Source: Balanoglossus misakiensis
Taxonomy: Eukaryota; Animalia; Hemichordata
Reading direction: 5' to 3'
DNA length: 64,000 nucleotides
NCBI GenBank assembly: GCA_040954595.2
Contig: CM082596.2
Coordinates: forward strand, 5,220,791 to 5,284,790
The position numbers and the translations under genes were made by a program. The notes below the pieces were generated by a model. The model searched no databases. It was not told the origin of the DNA and worked only from the letters and a program-made list of their open reading frames with translations. This document shows positions 1 through 63,252 of the stretch, one piece after another. Each line of letters opens with the position of its first letter. The stretch's first letter is position 1.

Positions 1-3000
1 GCCCCTGCTGCGTCCTTTGCCTGCACCTTCTGCTCTCTTCTTCACGTCATCAATCCTGGGCACAACCCTTCTGCCCATGGGTGAGGGTTTAGTTTCTTCA
101 TATACAGCCTTTTTCCGGGGTTTCATCTTGCCTTTACCGTGGGCCACAGGACCTGAGGGCAACCGGTCGTCCTCTCTTTCTTGAGCCTCAACCGCCTGCA
201 ACCCAAAAATACAAACAGGTATCCCTTTAATAACAGTGATTGGTTGGCATTTCTTTCCTTTGCAAGTTCTTGTTGGGGGGGTTGTCGAAATATACATTAC
301 AAAATAGGTGTCGCCAAGCAAGTCAATGAAATTATAAGTTGCTAAATTTGTCTGATAAATAAAGAATATTACGAGTCAGCATTTTCAACGTGTTATCTCA
401 AAATGGCAATAGCATTTTCAAGTTCTAGATTGAATTTTCTTATTTTCTTTGCCCAAACCAGATTCAAAATTTAATGAAAATGACCAGAGGAAGTTGAGTA
501 CTTACATCAAGCTTCTCAGAGAAGGCATTTAAATCGTCAATCCACAGATCATTGGGCGTCTTCATTCGCAGGTCTGATAGTTCGGCAGCCTGTGTAATTA
601 AACAAAAATGACAAAGCGTAGCTCAGTAAACAATTTTGTGATATACTGGTACTTGACACTTATCTTCAAAGCAGATGACATGAACTCAACACATATGTTG
701 TCTGATGCAAAAACAGCCAAATTCGGTTGTTTATATGACAGCCAATAAAGGAAAAAAATGACCATGAATTGGTTTATCTTTCTGCACTGACCTTTTCATC
801 TCTGTGTTTGAGGAGTTCATCTTTCTTTTCTCTGGACAGACTCATCAAGGGCATGTTCAGCAGATAGTTGAAGTCGACACCCGTGCCCGACGCTGTCGAG
901 AACTGACTGGATGTGTCGTCATCATCGTCTTCCATCTCATCATCTTTGCCTTGATTCTGTGATTCTTTCCACGACTTGACTGGGTCCGAATCATAGCCGC
1001 GCTGCACAAGCATCGATATCACATCTTTCTTCTTCTTGTTTTCTGGAAAGAGATAAAAAATGATCACAAAGATCGTCTTTGTATCACAATCAATCATAGC
1101 AACTCGACAACCTCATCTCAGTCATTAAACCCAAAGCAGGGATGTCGAATATTTCCATTGCAGGTGCCATATTACTCTTATAGGAAACAATTGGGTTGGA
1201 CCAAACCATGGTAATGAAAGGGTTAAGGCAATGCCTGGATACACACACAAAAATAAGAACCGTCAGCTCACCGATGACAATGGTGCCCTCGATCTTCTCC
1301 AAGATGAACCGCGCTTGGTTGTCCAACCTCAGAGACTCGGCTGCCAACATGCCTTCCAGGTACGCCTTACGAATCCTGTACCGCTCCAGTCGCAGATCAA
1401 AGAACTCTCTGAAGATTTCTGTGACACTGTCGTATTTCCTGATGCAGCCATTGGAATCGAAAAGCACCTGCAGCAAAAAAGTCAAAGTCAAATGTGATTC
1501 AAAAGAGTGTACAAAATGCTGGAATTTACATAAATCCAGAAAAATAACAGTGCTATAGGACACTGACAAGACTAACCATAATGGGTGATTTCTTACACCA
1601 ACACAACGGTCAATCTTTCAGCACTCTATCTAAACTGCATGTTGGTGTGCTGGCTAACTCTTTTTTGTCTCGGAAATCTCTCCTTCCTGACAGAGGGTAC
1701 ACATGTTGTACTTACACTGTTGGTCTGTGAAAGCGTTGTTTGCAATTTGAAGACTTTATGAAGGCCTTGCTCTTCTGCTTTGAACAGTTTGTCTTCTGTC
1801 ATTTTGATGACAAACTTGACAGTGGTGTCAGTGTGGTACTCTTTGTAATCACTGAAAAAGAACATTTAAAAAAATGCAATTATTTTGATAGTTCCAAGCC
1901 ATAGAGTGTTTGTCAGAAATCAGTTTCAGGGTTAATAGGCTGTACTGTACTTTTGAAAAGCAAGTTATCAGAACCACACAATCTTTCTACTTAGCTTTTC
2001 ACACAACATTGCGATTTTTCTTCTGGTACACTTACGTAATCATAGGAGGAACTTTCTCTGTTCCATGGAGCATGGGTTCCAAGACCGTCTCTTTGTAAGT
2101 CTGGGTCCAGGTTCTGATTGGCAGTTCTGTGATCTCTAACGTGTTGTTGTCAATGATCGCGATCTCTCCGTTGCAGGCGTAGCGGTTCTCTTCGATCTCC
2201 TCGATGGTTCCGCTGAAGTTCTTGTAGGACGGGAGCTGTGTGGGAATTTTGACCATTCAATAAGATAAGGATTACACTGCACACTATCTACAGCTCAGAG
2301 TTATTTGTGCCTTGCAATTCAAACTTCATAATACATAAATATTGGACAACACAGTCCAACGCAGCACTCACCATTGGCAGAGGCTCTTCTCCATCAATCA
2401 TCCTCCTGCAGTTGGCGACAACTTCCCGGACGTCGTAGTTCTGGACTTTGGTGCTCCATCCGGTACCGATGCCGTCCGCTCCGTTGATGAGAACCATGGG
2501 AATGATGGGGCAGTACCACTCGGGCTCAATGCGCTGATTGTCATCGTACAAGTAAGTCAGATTGAAGTCATCATTTGCAGGGAACACCAATCTGGCGAGG
2601 GCGCTGTGAAAAGATAGACCCAAATGTCAGCGTTCACAGTTTATACTCGACTTTCATTCAAGTATTGATTCTTTCAATACCTGCACGCACAACTCAAAGG
2701 TTTGCTCTTACAGATTCAGGATTTATAAAGCTCAAAGTTACTCAAATCTCAAGCCCAGGTTTGCTATTAGAGAAACCATCTCTTACCTTAGCATGGTGAA
2801 AATGTATCTGGGACTAGCTGCATCCTTGCCACCGTGAAGTCTGGTACCAAACTGACCCACGGGCTGCAGCAAGTTCAAGTTATTGCTGCCCACAAAATTC
2901 TGGGCTAAATTGATGATGGTGCTCATCAGGGAAGTCTGGAAAAGCATGAAAAATAGAATTATTTCAGGTTAGTGATTGTGAATAATTCTGGTGGTTTACA

Positions 3001-6000
3001 AGCCTGCTGTAGATCTACACCAGCAGTGTATCACACATTTAGTACAGCACCATGGATCTAAGTCTAACAAATTTGACATCCTACGAATTCAAGATTCACA
3101 CTCCTCTGAAAATTATCCCCAAGCACTCACTTCACCGTGGTGGTAGGCAGACTTCTCAGCAATGGAACCTGCCAACTGGGCCACTTTGACTTCCCGCTTG
3201 TCATTTCTCTTGAAGCAAGTGAACAACACCTTACGCTGACCGGGTTTGAGACCTACAGTGTCACAGAAGAATGAAAGAGGATGTTCACATATCAGAGAGT
3301 TTAATGCAGACGCTGAAATATTGGAAACGAACTCTTCATTTCTCATCCCGTTAACGATCCCAATTTTTGAATGCACTCACCATCGACCATGGATGGAATA
3401 GACCTTTCGTTGTCTGCGTTGGAGAACAGAACCAACTCCTTGTTGACAAAGTCATTGTACGAGATGTACCTGGTCTCTTTGTTGTACAGGTAGAGCTGAA
3501 AGAGAGAACAAAGAATCCAGTTGGCAAAAAGGACTTGAATATGCAACTTCAGACTTTTCAACCTGTGTGTACTCCCCTCAAGTGAGATCAACAAGGTCGT
3601 TAATTAACATGTTGGTACCCCTACGAATTTGTCAAGGGGCAACCAGACCAGCACCCCCTTAAAATGTCAATCACACATCAGAGATATTACAGTACCAGAG
3701 TGGAATCCTCCCAAAATATTCTGGCAAAGGAAGACAATCATGAAACACTGATACTTACATCAGACAAACCGTCCTCCCTTCTACGTTTCCTCTCAGCCAG
3801 CCACTCTGTCAACCACTCCTTCCGCTCCTCACACTTCTTCTTGCTAAAGGCAAGGGTGATCGCAGCATCGTCGTCGGGGCCACCATACTTGAACGGAATC
3901 CGGTGGCGGGTCATGTCCGCAAAGTATTCCTTGGCCTCCTTGTTGGTGCTCGTACCCAAACCTTACAAGTTTAAGAAAAGACAAAATGATGGTCCAAATA
4001 CACCCTTGTACATTGATGACTTTTTCAATAGTTTTTTCCCCCATGGATTTTTTGTTCACATTTTATCTGGTAACATCAGTCACATGCATAGCTCCTTGTA
4101 CAACACTGTTGTCCGTCAGGTGATCATAGTTCCGAAATGAAATCATAAGTCACAACAACTGTCGCGCCCATGCCAAAAAAGACAAACCTTTGTAGTACTT
4201 TATCTTCCATGATGTGTAGTTTGGAGTGGCTTTCTTCCACTCTTCAAATTCCGGCAGACTGTAGAAGGGCATCGACTGCGTCCCCTTGCTCACCTACGAA
4301 GTCAAAGTTCATTGTCAATGTTTAACCTTTTTCAAATAAACTGTAGATACTGGTAGTGCATTACACTACAGATTAGCAGCAGACAATATCACATCTTATG
4401 AAGATGTACGATTAAGAGTAATTGAAAAATCCAACATAACTCACCTTGACAATAGGAGTGATGAACTCTTCTAAAAAGTTCATTTTAAGTAAACTGGGCC
4501 AGTTGTGGTGAATGAAATTGATCAGCAGCCCTTTGATGTGGGAACCGTCCTGGTCCTGATCTGTCATGATCATCAGCCTGCCGTATCTCAGCGTCTTCAA
4601 GATGTCTTCCGAGTCGTAAGACTTCTTGTACTGAAGACCCATGATTTTGATGATGTTGTTGATCTCAGCATTCTCCATGATCTGTGTGTGTTACAAGCAG
4701 AATCATTTACTACTGCAATCCAAACTAAGCGTATATAACATATGTTGCAAACCAGAAATGATTCTTGATGATCGAATATAGGTCAGATCAATATCCTTCC
4801 CAGAGTTGGTTACCTGCTTATGTGTGGCCTCCCTGACGTTGAGAAGTTTACCACGTAATGGGAACACGCCGAACTTGTCCCTGCCAACCACCGACAGACC
4901 GCTCACAGCCAATGTCTTGGCTGAGTCTCCCTCTGTCAGGATAAGCGTGCAGCCTCTAGAGTTCTTGGTTCCAGCGTCATTGGCGTCGTCCAGCTTGGGA
5001 ATGCCTTTCAGTTTGGACATCTTGGTGGCATGGCACTTCTTGTTCAGCTGGGTCTGCGCCTTGATCTTCATCCAGTTGACGATACTCTCCACTATGCCGC
5101 AGCCCATGGCCTGTACACAGAAGTTCAATAAAAAAATCACTCTACTTTTCAAATTCAATTACGGACAAGCCACTGGTCTGCACAGGGGTTCAATAAGTAA
5201 TCAGGATTTTGTTTTTTTGATTCAAATATGGACAAGCATATTGAGACAATATTCTGATGGACCACGACACAAAACAAAGGTTTTTGAATGAAACATAGAT
5301 ATACATGTTTTCCTAGGTATGCATTTATCCACCAGGTTATTCGTACTGCCATCACCATTTCTTCCTGCATCTAGTGTTTACAGAACACAACATTTCAACT
5401 CTGATATAAGCCTTTTTATTTACATTTGCATCAAAAGAATTTTGTCAGCAAAATTACTAATGCATCTGTGACATCAAAGAAAATGATCCATCAACAAATA
5501 TCTCAGACAACACTGACCTGTTTGATGAATTTATCACTCAGCTTACATGTGGATCCAAACTTCTTGGCTTGCAGAGTCATGTTCTCTTTGGTTTGCGAAT
5601 CAAAGGAGGGATTCTCCACCAAGCAGTTCACAAATACCCACAGATGAGTCTTGATCTGAAACAACATTATTGGTTTATAATGAAGTTTAATTTTCCACAT
5701 CACAAGGTTTTGTTCTCATCATATATGTATCTGGAAATCAAAACAACTGTTCTACGTGTGGCCAGGTTTGTGTCGTTTGCAGGGCACACAAACTGCTATT
5801 TGATCATTTAAATTTAAAAGAATGCATCAGAAAAACTTACCTGGAAGGGCTTTATATTAATTCCTCCTTTATTCTTTCTCTTGACAGTTTCCATTAATTT
5901 CGACACAAGCTGATCAACAACATAATCAATATGTCTCCCACCCTAGAAAAAAAAACACAACAAGAAACAAATTTATAAAAAATTCATACGTGTGAAAATA

Positions 6001-9000
6001 CAAACTTCAAACCTAACAGGACAACACTGCCACAAACTTACCTTAGTCGTAGCAATGCTATTGACAAAGCTGACTTGCTGGAAGCCTTGCTCACTCATAG
6101 CGACGCACACCTCCCATCTGTCATTCACCACTTCGTGTACGACTTTCAGGGGTTCGTTGGTCTCCGTTGTCCTGTCCTTGACGTAGAGGTCAACATAATC
6201 ACGGAAGTCTTTTACCTGTTGATGATATATGTCACACCAAGGTGGATTATGGAAGGTGCTCTTGTGTTCATAAGTACTATCCAACAATAATTCTATGCTA
6301 ACTGTAGAATTCCTATGCAATTTGTAGCCACTCAGAGTCACCAGCTGCACTATGAGTTTCCAACAGCCTAAAATCAATATTTTGGCCATGTAACAAAGAG
6401 CTTGACACCATAAGGGGCAGAAAAAATGATAAAAAATTCAAATTGTCATGTGTGAAGAACCACAGAACACTGGAACAGTCTGTGTGCAACACTTCTTTCC
6501 TCTGGAGGAAAAACAACAGAGATCAGGATAAAAGTTTCACTTACAGGAAGTCTCTTGCCATTCAGAAACACTCTCACACCTTTCGTGACACCAGCGATGT
6601 CGTAAGCACGTCTCGTCAACAAAGCAACTGTGTCCCTGTCCAGACGCTCCATTTTAAACTTGGCAAGATCCGGCTGGAAGGAGATCTCTGTGAAGTCCTT
6701 TCCGTCGAATGGTTTGATGTTGTTGTCCCCGGCTTTTGTCATGTTATTCTTCCATGTCTACAAGAAAAAGAAATGTTACTTACAAAAAGGGATTGCTGAT
6801 ACGGTGGGGGACACCAGCCATACAAGGCTGTCTGCCTAGTATGGTTGATTAGCCATCATTTTCCAAAATCATACACTCTCTCAGTAAACTGGGAGACCAA
6901 TTAATGAGTTCCGAATCCATACGCTCTAGTACTTTCACATATGAAAGTGATATCTAACTCAAACCTTCAAGACTTTCGAACGTTGCATGAAATATGTCAC
7001 AAACCTGTTTGAATTGTTTGCCATACTCTTTGGATGCTGTCGCCACTGTGAATTTCGTGCTGAATATATTGCACAGTTTTGCACCATAACCGTTTCGACC
7101 ACCTGAAACATGCAAGGAATGTATAGCAGAGTTGATCATACTGGGGGCCATGAAAATTGCCAATAATATCACTGCATTGGTTGCTATAGGTTACAACAAA
7201 CTGATTTGACCAAAGTTCCTCCTACCTGTCACTTTCCTCTCTTCATCGTTGTAATTACTGGACGTCAGAAGGTGCCCAAAGATCAGTGAGGGAACGTAGA
7301 TTTTCTCAACTTGGTGGACGATCACTGGAATTCCTTTCCCGTTATTCCAAATACTTATTAGATTGCTCTCTCTATCAGGTAAAATGCACAAAATATACTT
7401 CAGCAAAGATTTGTTCCCTTCTTAACAGAAATTCACAAAACAGATATGGTGTATGTTGACTACTGTTTCTCTACATGTGCTTACTCACTGAATATCCGGG
7501 TCTACTGTACATGCAAGAACCAGACTAGGAGTTTCAGAATGAAATATGGTCACAAGGGAATGTCATTTAAAACATAACTCTCAGAACATTCATTTTTGGT
7601 GATACTGAAATTTCTCTAACTTCAAAAACTTACGGATCAATGGTGATTTTAATACAATCCATTTTGGGATCCCTTTGTTTGTTATCTGCAGCGTTGACTG
7701 TAAGGAGAAAAAAAAACAATCAATGGTCACATTATTCAAGTGGAATAACTCATGGTTTCGACATTGTATAGTAAATTGCTGTAGCATGACAATGGTAAAC
7801 CATTGGGCATATGTACATGTACTACCTTACCATTGTCAACATTTTTAGCAAATACTACACAAATTAATGCTTTGATAACAATCGTGATGATATATTTCAA
7901 AAATCAAATCAACACAATGGTGTATCAATTATTTACAGCATTTTTAATGATTTATACCAAAACAAACCTAGAAAAATAATGCCAACTTACCTAAAATTTC
8001 ATCAAATATTTTGTACAGACCAGGCACAAATGTGATTTCTCTGTACACAAGACTTCCATTCTCTCCAACATCTTTATCAAACACCCACATGGACTGAAAA
8101 ATTAGGAATATTGCATAATAAATTATTTGTTGCCATGGACCACTTCGCGGATAGAATAACGCAGGGGGATGTGGGGCAGTTTGCGTTCTGAGCGCGTGCG
8201 TTGTACTAGACGCTAGCCTATGTTGAACACAAATTATCCCATCATGCATTGCAGATACCCTATCCGCGAAGTGGTCTATGTTTGTAGTTACAAACTAAAT
8301 ACAAACACTTTATTTAACACACTACAATAAATAAACCATTTACCTGCGTGACTGGTTCAACAGATCCAATGTATGTATCAGGACGGAGCAAAATATGCTC
8401 CAGCTGGGTTTTTTTCTGATAGATACGTTCGACAGAGAGACGCTTTCCCCCCTTCTTGCTTGTCTCCTTTTTAGGACCATCTTCGTTGGCTACTGCTGCA
8501 GCTGCAGACTTTTCTTTGGCTTCTTTCTGTTTAGCCTCATTCTTCTTGTTTGCATTGTCAAACAGGGTCTACAACATAAAAATACAGGAATTATATGTTT
8601 GAATGCTGTAAGCTGTACCGTTGGGGAGGGGGTAATCAGCCACACCCCCCCCCCCCCCCCCCAACAGTTCAGCTGCCTACCACAGCTAAAGATGGCGGTG
8701 TTTACATTTTGACTGCCAAAGATCAATGTTTGCGGTCCAATCGTTTTCAAAATACATTATCATTGAAAAAGGTGTGTAATATATTCCAAAGGGAAAGAAT
8801 TTGACTCCAATTGTCATCCAGGCAAGCAGTATGAAAGTACAATGTATTTTATACTAGTCTTTCAAATCTACATGTACTTGTAACTTTCTATGTGTCGGTT
8901 ACCTTCAGTGGGCCCTCCGACATCGTGACTATCGTCTCACTCTGTATCGCCTGTTGTATCGAAAACCGTTCTTCAATTTTGGTACCGCTCTATCCTAACG

Positions 9001-9370
9001 ACCTGAAGTTAACCCACAGACCGTTTTTTCCCCACTTCGCTTTCAGAAAACTCGAGGCCTGTCAAGTTTCCGGGATCTGGTTTTGACACACGTTTCTTTG
9101 CAAAATCAAAATACAACGTTCACCGCCAAAAATTTGAACCAATCCTGGTGACGGATTTTGATCATGTGGGATATTTACATAATACCGTTTGCTACTGTTC
9201 CGTGATTTTACGGGAACATGGGGAATGAGAGGTCACAGGTCACACCGATTCCGAACAAAACTTCCCTTGCATTTTAACGAAAAATAAGACATCCTTACCA
9301 CCCACGTCAGCTTTCCAGGGCCTCCATTGCCGCCTGAATTATCATCTGATCCAAACGATCCCGGATCCAT
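1..9370 (-). CDS. TOP2: DNA topoisomerase II (type IIA), multi-exon; C-terminal domain continues beyond the left edge
   Basis: Spliced exons give [30 protein letters not shown] (ATPase), EGDSA / PLRGK / [12 protein letters not shown] (TOPRIM), [13 protein letters not shown] and [10 protein letters not shown] (catalytic Tyr, ~2790-2830). Distal first coding exon 9370-9299, exon 2 8568-8344; the introns I checked are GT-AG. Confidence 0.98.
8135..8279. mobile_element. Short MITE-like element in a TOP2 intron
   Basis: ~20-bp terminal inverted repeats ATGGACCACTTCGCGGATAG / CTATCCGCGAAGTGGTCTAT. Confidence 0.65.
8903..8923 (-). CDS. TOP2: TOP2 alternative proximal first coding exon (TOP2A-like, MSEGPLK)
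   Basis: ACG-ATG TCG GAG GGC CCA CTG AAG|GTAACC: 21 coding nt, phase 0, in frame with exon 2. Same length and phase as the recalled human TOP2A exon 1 (MEVSPLQ). Confidence 0.7.
9123..9143 (-). promoter_or_regulatory. Cell-cycle promoter module: inverted CCAAT + CHR + E2F-like site
   Basis: Minus strand reads ATTGG-TTCAAA-TTTTTGGCGG contiguously, ~200 nt upstream of the proximal TOP2 ATG. Confidence 0.55.
9230..9242 (+). promoter_or_regulatory. Perfect nuclear-receptor DR1 element
   Basis: AGGTCA-C-AGGTCA between the two TOP2 first exons. Confidence 0.4.
9299..9370 (-). CDS. TOP2: TOP2 distal first coding exon (TOP2B-like N-terminus [24 protein letters not shown])
   Basis: ATG at 9370, 72 nt, phase-0 donor GTG|GTAAGG. 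Joins exon 2 ([11 protein letters not shown]) to give LTWV|TLFD, as I recall in vertebrate TOP2B. Confidence 0.85.
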
Positions 9371-10062: not shown

Positions 10063-10228
10063 GAGGGGATAGCGCGAACGCAGTCCCCCACTACCATAAA
10101 TTACGCACCCGAGTCACCCACATTTGGGGTGATCGCAAAGGTCAACCCGCCGGTGTGCAATGGACAGGCCTCGCCCTGGGGGAACCGCCGTCATGATCAC
10201 GGTTAAAACCCCTGTGCCAGGTAAGTAT
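10063..10228 (-). ncRNA. RNU1: U1 spliceosomal snRNA
   Basis: Starts ATACTTACCTGG; loop I GATCATGACG; loop II ATTGCAC; stem III TCACCC/GGGTGA (compensatory relative to human); Sm site AATTTATGG; terminal GGGGACTGCGTTCGCGCTATCCCC; ~166 nt. Confidence 0.98.
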
Positions 10229-11417: not shown

Positions 11418-21682
<10,265 letters not shown>

Positions 21683-60996: not shown

Positions 60997-63252
60997 ATGG
61001 AAAAGTCTGAGCAGAACGATCAACTTGTCCAGCATGCCGGCCAGGTGCTTTCATCGATGGACCGACTCCGACAAGACCGAGTTCTGACCGACTTGACCAT
61101 CCACGCCGATCACGGCCAGATCCATTGCCACAAGGTCCTACTGAAGATCTGTGGTCTTGACTTCTCCGAGTTGTGTTGCCAGGAAGAGTCAGTCACCACC
61201 AGACGGAAAGGCGGGCAGCAGACCGCGGTGAGAGTCGAGAACTTCACGGCGAGCGTCATCGAGGACCTGGTCGACTTCTGCTACACGGGGAAACTGACGA
61301 TCACCACGGAGAACGTCAAGCAGGTGCTGCAGGCGGCGACGCTGGGGAAACTGACTTTTCTCACCGAGGAGTGTTTGAAGTTCCTGGAACTGCGGCTGGA
61401 GCTGGACGATGACTTCCACGGCGGCCACGGGCAGCCGGACAAGGTCACCGTGCGCCGGCCCGCCCACGGGCTCCACGTGCTGACCGAGTTCCAGATCATG
61501 AAGAGCCGCTCGGAGAACACCGACGTCTCCCTGACGTGCCAGGAGGACGAGTTCTCCTGCCACAGCCTCATCCTGGCCGCCTGCAGCGACTACTTCAAGG
61601 CCATGTTCACCCACAACTTCACCGAGCAGAAGGCCCGGAAGATCGATCTGGTGGAGCCGGCCGACATCGTCGAGGATCTCGTGGCGTTCATGTACACGTC
61701 CAACCTTGACATTGAAGACGAGGGGATCCTCGACTTCCTTGCCAGCGCGGCGTACTTCCAAGTGTGTTTCCCCCCCGCGACCATCAGCAGTATCAAAGGC
61801 ATCGTCAGTACGGACAACTGCTTTAAGATATTGGAGATCTCCAACGTCTTCAGCGCCACGCTCCGAGACTTCGTACTGCAGTTTGTCCTCAAGAACTTCC
61901 CCAAGTTGGCCGATAACGAGGATTTCCTCAATATGCCGCTGCCCGTCGTCAGCCAGATTCTCTCTGACGACAAACTGAACGTGCTGGCCGAGGAGATCGT
62001 CTTCGAGGCCGCTTCCAATTGGTTGAACTACGACCACGACACGCGCTGGGGCTACCTCGACGAGCTGATGGAGTGCGTGCGCTTTCCGCTCCTCCACGAG
62101 TCCTTCCTCCGGGACATCATGGAGCAGCAGTCGTTCATCCTGAAGTCCGGGATGCTGAGGGAGAAGCTGGAGGTGGCCATCAAGACCAAGCAGGTGATTT
62201 CGTCGGTCAGCGAAGCTTGCAGCGAGAAGTGCCGGCCGAGGAACTCCATGAATCAGGACTTGATCTTCGTGTTGACACGGGCGCTGGACGGTTCAGCGGG
62301 GCCTCGCTGTGCGTTCCTCGGGCTCTCCGACCACGCGGTACATCACGTCAATGCGACCAGCGGCACCCTACCCCCCGGCCTGTCGCGGTTCACCATCATA
62401 GCCAAAGACACGGACATCTACGTGATCGGGGGCTGGGACACGGACCACGACGTGGCCTGCCAGTCGACGTGGAAGTACAGCGTCACCAAGAACGCGTGGA
62501 TCCGCTGCGCCGATCTCAACGTCGCGCGCTACGACGTGGCCGTCGGAATCATGGACGACTACATATACGCCATCGGCGGACAGATCGGCTCCATAGATAT
62601 CACTCACCCGGTCGCCGACGTGGAACGATACGACATCGAGAGCGATGAGTGGACGGAAGTTGAGCCGCTGCCGTCCCCGCTCAACAAGCCCGTGGTGACG
62701 GTGTATAAAGATAGACTCTTTGCCATGGACGCCGGAAGCCACTCCAAAGTGATCCGCACGCTGCTGGTCTACTACAGCTACACGGGACTGTGGGGCATGG
62801 TTCCCGCCGGCGTGGGACTGATGAACATGCGCTACATCGAGCACCTCATGACGTTGAACAACTCCATCCTCTGCTGGGGGCTGTACGACGGCGAGGGCTG
62901 CCAGCTGGCGTACAACGCTTTCCAGAAGTTCAACGCGGAGAACTTCCCGCCGAGGCGCGGCGGCCTGCTGGTGCGCCACCCTCCGTTGGTCTCCCCGCGA
63001 CTGCAGCATCCGGCGAAGTACGAACCCGTCAATCAGGTGGGACTGGCCATGAACGACGACTCGGTGTTCGTCATCAGCGACGCCCAGGCCAGGAGGGGCC
63101 GGCACTTGCTGATAGACAAGTACAACCCGCGCACGAGTGACTGGGACGAGCAGATCGAGATCAGCACACCCCTGTCCAAGGGCATCACGTCGGGGCTTCA
63201 GTGCGTGGTCTACAAAGGCTACATTGCCAAGCCGTGGAAGCATGAAAATTAA
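60997..63252 (+). CDS. Kelch-like protein with two BTB domains, BACK domain and Kelch repeats (single coding exon, 751 aa)
   Basis: BTB1 TDLTIH...CHKVLL...LVDFCYTG; BTB2 TDVSL...CHSLILAACSDYFKAMF...FMYTS; BACK EEIVFEAASNWL...VRFPLL; Kelch IYVIGG, IYAIGG, VERYD...W. Splice acceptor at 60950 just upstream of the ATG. Confidence 0.95.
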   Translation: MEKSEQNDQLVQHAGQVLSSMDRLRQDRVLTDLTIHADHGQIHCHKVLLKICGLDFSELCCQEESVTTRRKGGQQTAVRVENFTASVIEDLVDFCYTGKLTITTENVKQVLQAATLGKLTFLTEECLKFLELRLELDDDFHGGHGQPDKVTVRRPAHGLHVLTEFQIMKSRSENTDVSLTCQEDEFSCHSLILAACSDYFKAMFTHNFTEQKARKIDLVEPADIVEDLVAFMYTSNLDIEDEGILDFLASAAYFQVCFPPATISSIKGIVSTDNCFKILEISNVFSATLRDFVLQFVLKNFPKLADNEDFLNMPLPVVSQILSDDKLNVLAEEIVFEAASNWLNYDHDTRWGYLDELMECVRFPLLHESFLRDIMEQQSFILKSGMLREKLEVAIKTKQVISSVSEACSEKCRPRNSMNQDLIFVLTRALDGSAGPRCAFLGLSDHAVHHVNATSGTLPPGLSRFTIIAKDTDIYVIGGWDTDHDVACQSTWKYSVTKNAWIRCADLNVARYDVAVGIMDDYIYAIGGQIGSIDITHPVADVERYDIESDEWTEVEPLPSPLNKPVVTVYKDRLFAMDAGSHSKVIRTLLVYYSYTGLWGMVPAGVGLMNMRYIEHLMTLNNSILCWGLYDGEGCQLAYNAFQKFNAENFPPRRGGLLVRHPPLVSPRLQHPAKYEPVNQVGLAMNDDSVFVISDAQARRGRHLLIDKYNPRTSDWDEQIEISTPLSKGITSGLQCVVYKGYIAKPWKHEN

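Follow-up and report, generated by a model that had tools for sequence, protein, structure and literature searches.

The present study indicates that the TOP2 gene of the hemichordate Balanoglossus misakiensis carries two candidate first coding exons, that these two starts likely derive from two promoters serving one common exon 2, and that the jawed-vertebrate paralogues, TOP2A and TOP2B, likely each kept one of them. TOP2 is the enzyme that untangles DNA; TOP2A serves dividing cells, and TOP2B is required in non-dividing cells.

Results

The window in our study is the whole 64-kb (64,000-nucleotide) stretch of DNA that was analysed. By tblastn, its minus-strand TOP2 exons match residues 22-1277 of Ptychodera flava TOP2, and the ATPase, TOPRIM and breakage-reunion regions are collinear with known TOP2, as in a eukaryotic type IIA topoisomerase. 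The exons that follow exon 2 lie at 4..8102 (minus strand; Ptychodera residues about 90-1277 by tblastn), and the C-terminal part extends beyond the window start. The window protein covers 1147 of the 1170 TOP2 core positions, where it is 71-74% identical to both vertebrate TOP2A and TOP2B and ~90% identical to Ptychodera TOP2, the latter value being slightly inflated by the merging of overlapping segments. In a tree of 41 TOP2 core sequences, built with the N-termini left out, the window gene is sister to Ptychodera flava among the hemichordates, which group with support 100. TOP2A and TOP2B of jawed vertebrates (21 rows) fall into a single clade (support 100). Since the window gene falls outside this clade, its phylogenetic position is that of a pre-duplication orthologue of both paralogues. 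Constraining the hemichordates to join TOP2A was rejected (p-AU 4e-5). Within the vertebrate clade, TOP2B is firm and the monophyly of TOP2A is weak (24; 0.575).

The distal first coding exon, of the TOP2B type, occupies 9370-9299 (minus strand; 72 nt, 24 codons), ends in KLTWV and is followed by the donor gtaagg (9298-9293). The proximal one, of the TOP2A type, occupies 8923-8903 (minus strand; 21 nt, 7 codons), encodes MSEGPLK and is followed by the donor gtaacc (8902-8897). Exon 2 (8568-8344, minus strand) follows a pyrimidine-rich AG, starts with TLFD in phase 0, and begins the N-terminal strap and the ATPase domain. The first-pass annotation had claimed that both exons run in phase 0 into this one exon 2, and the coordinates, frames and donors were confirmed in the DNA. 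Each exon has the ATG, the donor and the frame of an alternative first exon, and upstream of each ATG lies an in-frame stop with no in-frame ATG in between. There are 30 ATG-to-GT phase-0 stretches between 10060 and 8569, so the sequence alone is not decisive. Likewise, both donors carry 6 of 9 consensus bases, level with 7 other sites.

The encoded peptides are more specific. The pattern M..[LVI]xW[VTK]+GT occurs once on both strands of the whole 64 kb, at the distal exon, and M..P[LF][KRQ]+GT occurs twice, at the proximal exon and at 21360. The distal peptide matches the isoform X1 starts of Ptychodera and Glandiceps as well as the LTWV of human TOP2B. The proximal peptide matches the annotated starts of Patiria (MTDGPLK) and Haliotis (MASEGPLK), and fish TOP2A. 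Because the peptides match annotated alternative starts of relatives, we take both exons as real, and on this conservation the pair is almost certainly genuine in the window DNA. A reading in which the proximal exon serves as a cassette inside the transcript was considered and rejected, as the upstream AGs mostly have no pyrimidine tract and the proteins of relatives begin at the corresponding Met.

Several other features accompany the TOP2 gene. A full-length U1 snRNA gene (10063-10228, minus strand; Rfam RF00003, 138.5 bits) shares the strand of TOP2 and lies ~700 bp upstream of its distal exon. Further upstream is a gene (about 13300-20100, minus strand) whose numerous short exons encode cysteine-rich segments that resemble calcium-binding EGF and sushi repeats. 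A low-complexity triplet tract is found near 18500-18900, and GC content is 58-61% at 61001-63000 against about 42% elsewhere in the window.

The same two starts sort the vertebrate proteins into TOP2A and TOP2B. A Xenopus TOP2A fragment without the true exon 1 served as query for TOP2A, and the best 120 matches listed span sharks, rays, bony fish, amphibians, lizards and mammals. Starts of the form M..P[LF][KRQ] were found in 100 of these 120, the remainder being 6 near variants and 14 other or truncated models, and W before the conserved core was found in none of the 120. For TOP2B, L[TNA]W[VM] was present in 49 of the 57 vertebrate proteins among the matches listed from the exon-2 query; this count uses that query alone, since TOP2B rows from another query, which contained LTWV, are biased. 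A PLK-type start was absent from all 57 of these and from all 145 TOP2B proteins gathered. Neither query behind the 120 TOP2A and 57 TOP2B counts included a real exon 1. Retention of the starts is reciprocal at the protein level (W in 0/120 TOP2A, PL[KRQ] in 0/145 TOP2B), although these counts come from related species and represent, in effect, one event.

The eight residues of abalone MASEGPLK recur unchanged in a fish TOP2A (P0284). MEVSPLQ, which the first-pass annotation had given as the first residues of human TOP2A, was seen in primate and rodent TOP2A rows; human TOP2A exon 1 is, we assume, 7 codons long. Genomic read-through fragments place the acceptor just before xLF[DE] in both fish-TOP2A-like and TOP2B-like sequences. 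A search at the level of 50% representatives was used to place this acceptor; it returned the exon 2 start in 19 of 144 new rows, mostly genomic read-through. The further claim that human TOP2B begins ...LTWV-TLFD was upheld, as human TOP2B aligns with LTWVTLFD (7YQ8) and its splice junction is reported to fall after Val23 (PMC9592559), in agreement with the exon 2 boundary of the window.

A second short TOP2B start, MM[SP]P, is annotated in three salamander genera, Ambystoma, Pleurodeles and Lissotriton (P0044, P0492, P0495, P0496, P0497), and may either descend from the proximal exon as a relic or have arisen anew. Extra TOP2B starts also occur in the bichir Erpetoichthys (MKKPQNH), the skate Leucoraja (MCMF) and a stingray. 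Therefore, the split between the paralogues may be incomplete. No cyclostome TOP2 was among the matches listed of three homologue searches (best 120, 120 and 86), and the paralogues of cyclostomes are reported to form a branch separate from those of gnathostomes (PMC10081982). The first-pass annotation had proposed that the starts were partitioned between vertebrate ohnologues. Their sorting by TOP2A and TOP2B bears this out, and because the cyclostome paralogues form a separate branch, we confine the claim to jawed vertebrates. For these, the partition is well supported at the protein level, and we regard it as very likely.

Among invertebrates, a search with exon 2 alone (matches listed, best 120) followed by cluster look-ups covered 24 named species. 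Isoform pairs with identical bodies, differing only by the two starts, were found in 10 of the 24, from four phyla: the hemichordates Ptychodera and Glandiceps; the echinoderms Acanthaster, Patiria, Asterias rubens, A. amurensis and Apostichopus; the amphioxus Branchiostoma lanceolatum and B. belcheri; and the abalone Haliotis asinina. A Branchiostoma hybrid also has both starts and was left out of the count. Annotation gives the proximal type alone in five species (Saccoglossus, Ostrea, Solemya, Lineus and a Limulus look-alike), the distal type alone in six (Holothuria, H. rubra, Lingula, Elysia, Plakobranchus and Lymnaea), and neither start in three (Ciona, Tachypleus and a copepod). The single annotated start in 11 of the 24 species, together with the three that have neither, counts against our reading. 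The first-pass annotation had suggested seeking the same exon pair in relatives; it is annotated in hemichordates, echinoderms and amphioxus, so it is not absent there.

These invertebrate pairs are annotated gene models, a kind of model that rests on RNA-seq, joined by one genomic contig (L001, best matches to molluscs). In this contig, MATSDGPLK followed by GT precedes exon 2 by 478 nt. Its distal exon (5174-5209, phase 0, donor gtaagt) encodes a peptide without the W motif. The inter-exon regions of the window and L001 lacked any longer stretch of similarity in local DNA alignment, which gave scores of 19 and 20. Because the abalone also has both starts, the exon pair appears older than first proposed, and we infer that it was present in the protostome-deuterostome ancestor.

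Besides, several invertebrate TOP2 models (P0165, P0032, P0034, P0048, P0065) bear basic, hydrophobic N-terminal extensions, which in Lymnaea directly precede the distal-type start; we presume that they resemble mitochondrial presequences. Cassette segments were also observed in the C-terminal domain, 46 aa long in Ostrea as well as Haliotis and 24 aa long in two amphioxus species (P0147/P0101, P0098/P0152, P0133/P0140, P0022/P0019).

Three motifs clustered in 21 bp at 9143-9123 (minus strand), ~200 bp before the proximal ATG, make up a putative cell-cycle promoter element of that exon. These are an inverted CCAAT (9143-9139), a reverse CHR hexamer (TTTGAA in reverse orientation, 9138-9133) and an E2F-type site, TTTGGCGG (9130-9123), all on the minus strand. 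The last is one of five E2F-type sites in the 64 kb, and the CCAAT, CHR and E2F-type triple within 40 bp is unique in the window. An E2F-type and CCAAT pair stands before the proximal exon in the window and, at the same position, in L001. Such a pair arose in 31 of 2000 shuffles for the window, a soft value because the cluster was seen before the test was defined, and in 7 of 2000 for L001, tested afterwards. The E2F-type site is absent from the regions upstream of both distal exons (window and L001). CCAAT and the CHR hexamer are also present upstream of the window distal exon, and the human TOP2B promoter is reported to use CCAAT boxes as well (PMC13213696); CCAAT, therefore, does not discriminate.

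Human TOP2A is described as regulated via CCAAT boxes and is included in a list of CHR genes; the CHR element is reported to function in either orientation (PMC3763449, PMC4176359). The window resembles the TOP2A-type cell-cycle promoters of these reports in its CHR, E2F and CCAAT elements. In contrast to them, its CDE/CHR spacing is non-canonical and its sites are putative, and in L001, unlike the window, the CHR hexamer lies outside the cluster. Taken at this level, the E2F-type and CCAAT elements before the proximal exon hint at a cell-cycle promoter.

On the distal side, the L001 TOP2 exon is arranged head-to-head with a ubiquitin-conjugating enzyme gene (L001 2598-4680, minus strand; Pfam UQ_con; apparent first exon at 4680), which we take to be UBE2G-like, with ~490 bp between the apparent ATGs. 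This layout would fit a housekeeping promoter for the distal exon.

At the protein level, 14 of the 15 invertebrate proximal starts end in K/R directly before TLF or NLF. The pattern [KR]xL plus a hydrophobic residue is kept in 57 of 100 TOP2A starts, 24 of them with S/T before the proline, and mammals do not have it. The K/R-x-L-F across the proximal junction, often after an S/T-P site, may be a cyclin-docking-like motif.

Discussion

Our reading is that two promoters, ~450 bp from each other, would let a single gene produce the enzyme with either of two N-terminal straps. After the jawed-vertebrate duplication, TOP2A would have retained the proximal PLK type and TOP2B the distal LxWV type, each losing the other exon. 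If its E2F-type, CHR and CCAAT elements tied the proximal promoter to the cell cycle, and if the distal promoter were constitutive, the alpha/beta difference in expression would in part be older than the duplication. That proliferative and constitutive isoforms had already separated by then is plausible, and we rate it at about even chances. Stated most broadly, bilaterians could have had the alpha/beta programme as a promoter switch before vertebrates arose: most one-TOP2 invertebrates would make an alpha-like isoform under cell-cycle control and a constitutive, beta-like one, each with its own regulatory strap, and the jawed-vertebrate duplication would only have separated them. We would weigh the case for and against this proposal equally.

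More speculatively, splicing of the proximal exon would create K/R-x-L-F across the junction and splicing of the distal exon W-x-x-L-F instead, and either junction motif could tune the regulatory N-terminal strap. In human TOP2B the strap is reported to lower the ATPase rate, and Ser4 of TOP2A is phosphorylated (PMC9592559). Isoform-specific functions are reported to map to the C-terminal domain as well (PMC12897701). As this domain is unchanged by the first exons, the alpha/beta difference would be due to them only in part.

A different account of the expression step accepts the ancient, partitioned pair and departs from ours in that step only. In it the invertebrate promoters are not proliferative and constitutive, the two starts may be tissue, germline or stage variants, and the alpha/beta expression difference arose after the duplication. 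The occurrence of CCAAT and CHR hexamers upstream of both window exons and the many species with one annotated start speak for such a history, which we consider a real, if tentative, possibility. However, in two phyla the E2F-type and CCAAT pair precedes the proximal exon but neither distal one, and the head-to-head layout at the L001 distal exon would be expected of a housekeeping promoter. The partition itself might also have been less complete than we propose, with TOP2A alone having lost an exon and TOP2B having kept both promoters while its proximal exon degenerated in place. The short salamander, Erpetoichthys and Leucoraja TOP2B starts would suit this course of events, but the absence of PL[KRQ] from all 145 TOP2B proteins, together with extra starts that vary by lineage and may be new or annotation noise, makes it unlikely.

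It could further be argued that invertebrates and TOP2A acquired their PLK starts convergently, or that in the window species the proximal exon has no function or stems from annotation error, given that it has just 7 codons and a weak donor, that its invertebrate support consists of gene-model annotation plus one genomic contig, and that an invertebrate PLK start was not found in any of the assembled RNA encountered. We hold this to be very improbable, as the motif abuts the identical junction in 14/15 invertebrate proximal starts and also in sharks, bony fish, amphibians and mammals, and eight residues are identical between abalone and fish. We thus favor two ancestral starts that were divided between TOP2A and TOP2B.

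The vertebrate TOP2A and TOP2B genes share the enzyme core with the window gene, and their N-termini match its two candidate starts. The window gene joins both starts to one common C-terminal domain. Each vertebrate gene, by comparison, has a single main start, and the C-terminal domains of the two have diverged. Separation of splice isoforms by gene duplication is established for fish mitf, synapsin and kitl and for fungal SKI7/HBS1 (PMC4494069, PMC4417111). There, alternative exons of a single ancestral gene were retained reciprocally by the duplicates, as we propose for TOP2. Those published cases mostly concern teleost or fungal duplications, whereas the ancestral TOP2 pair would span protostomes and deuterostomes. 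TOP2 is absent from the main texts and searchable supplement files of both reports, and no earlier report of the TOP2 exon pair was found in the literature searched, the reach of which did not include Moreira et al. 2022 on TOPIIA evolution. The mechanism is thus known from other genes, and TOP2 would be a new instance of it, its isoform pairs sitting unremarked in public annotation.

Our findings indicate that both TOP2 N-termini arose before the duplication and have been conserved between lineages as far apart as molluscs and humans. The exon pair offers a concrete reason for the retention of both copies of a drug-target gene and highlights two short conserved motifs in the strap that lowers ATPase activity. 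If the proposed history is true, the division of labour between TOP2A and TOP2B may predate vertebrates.
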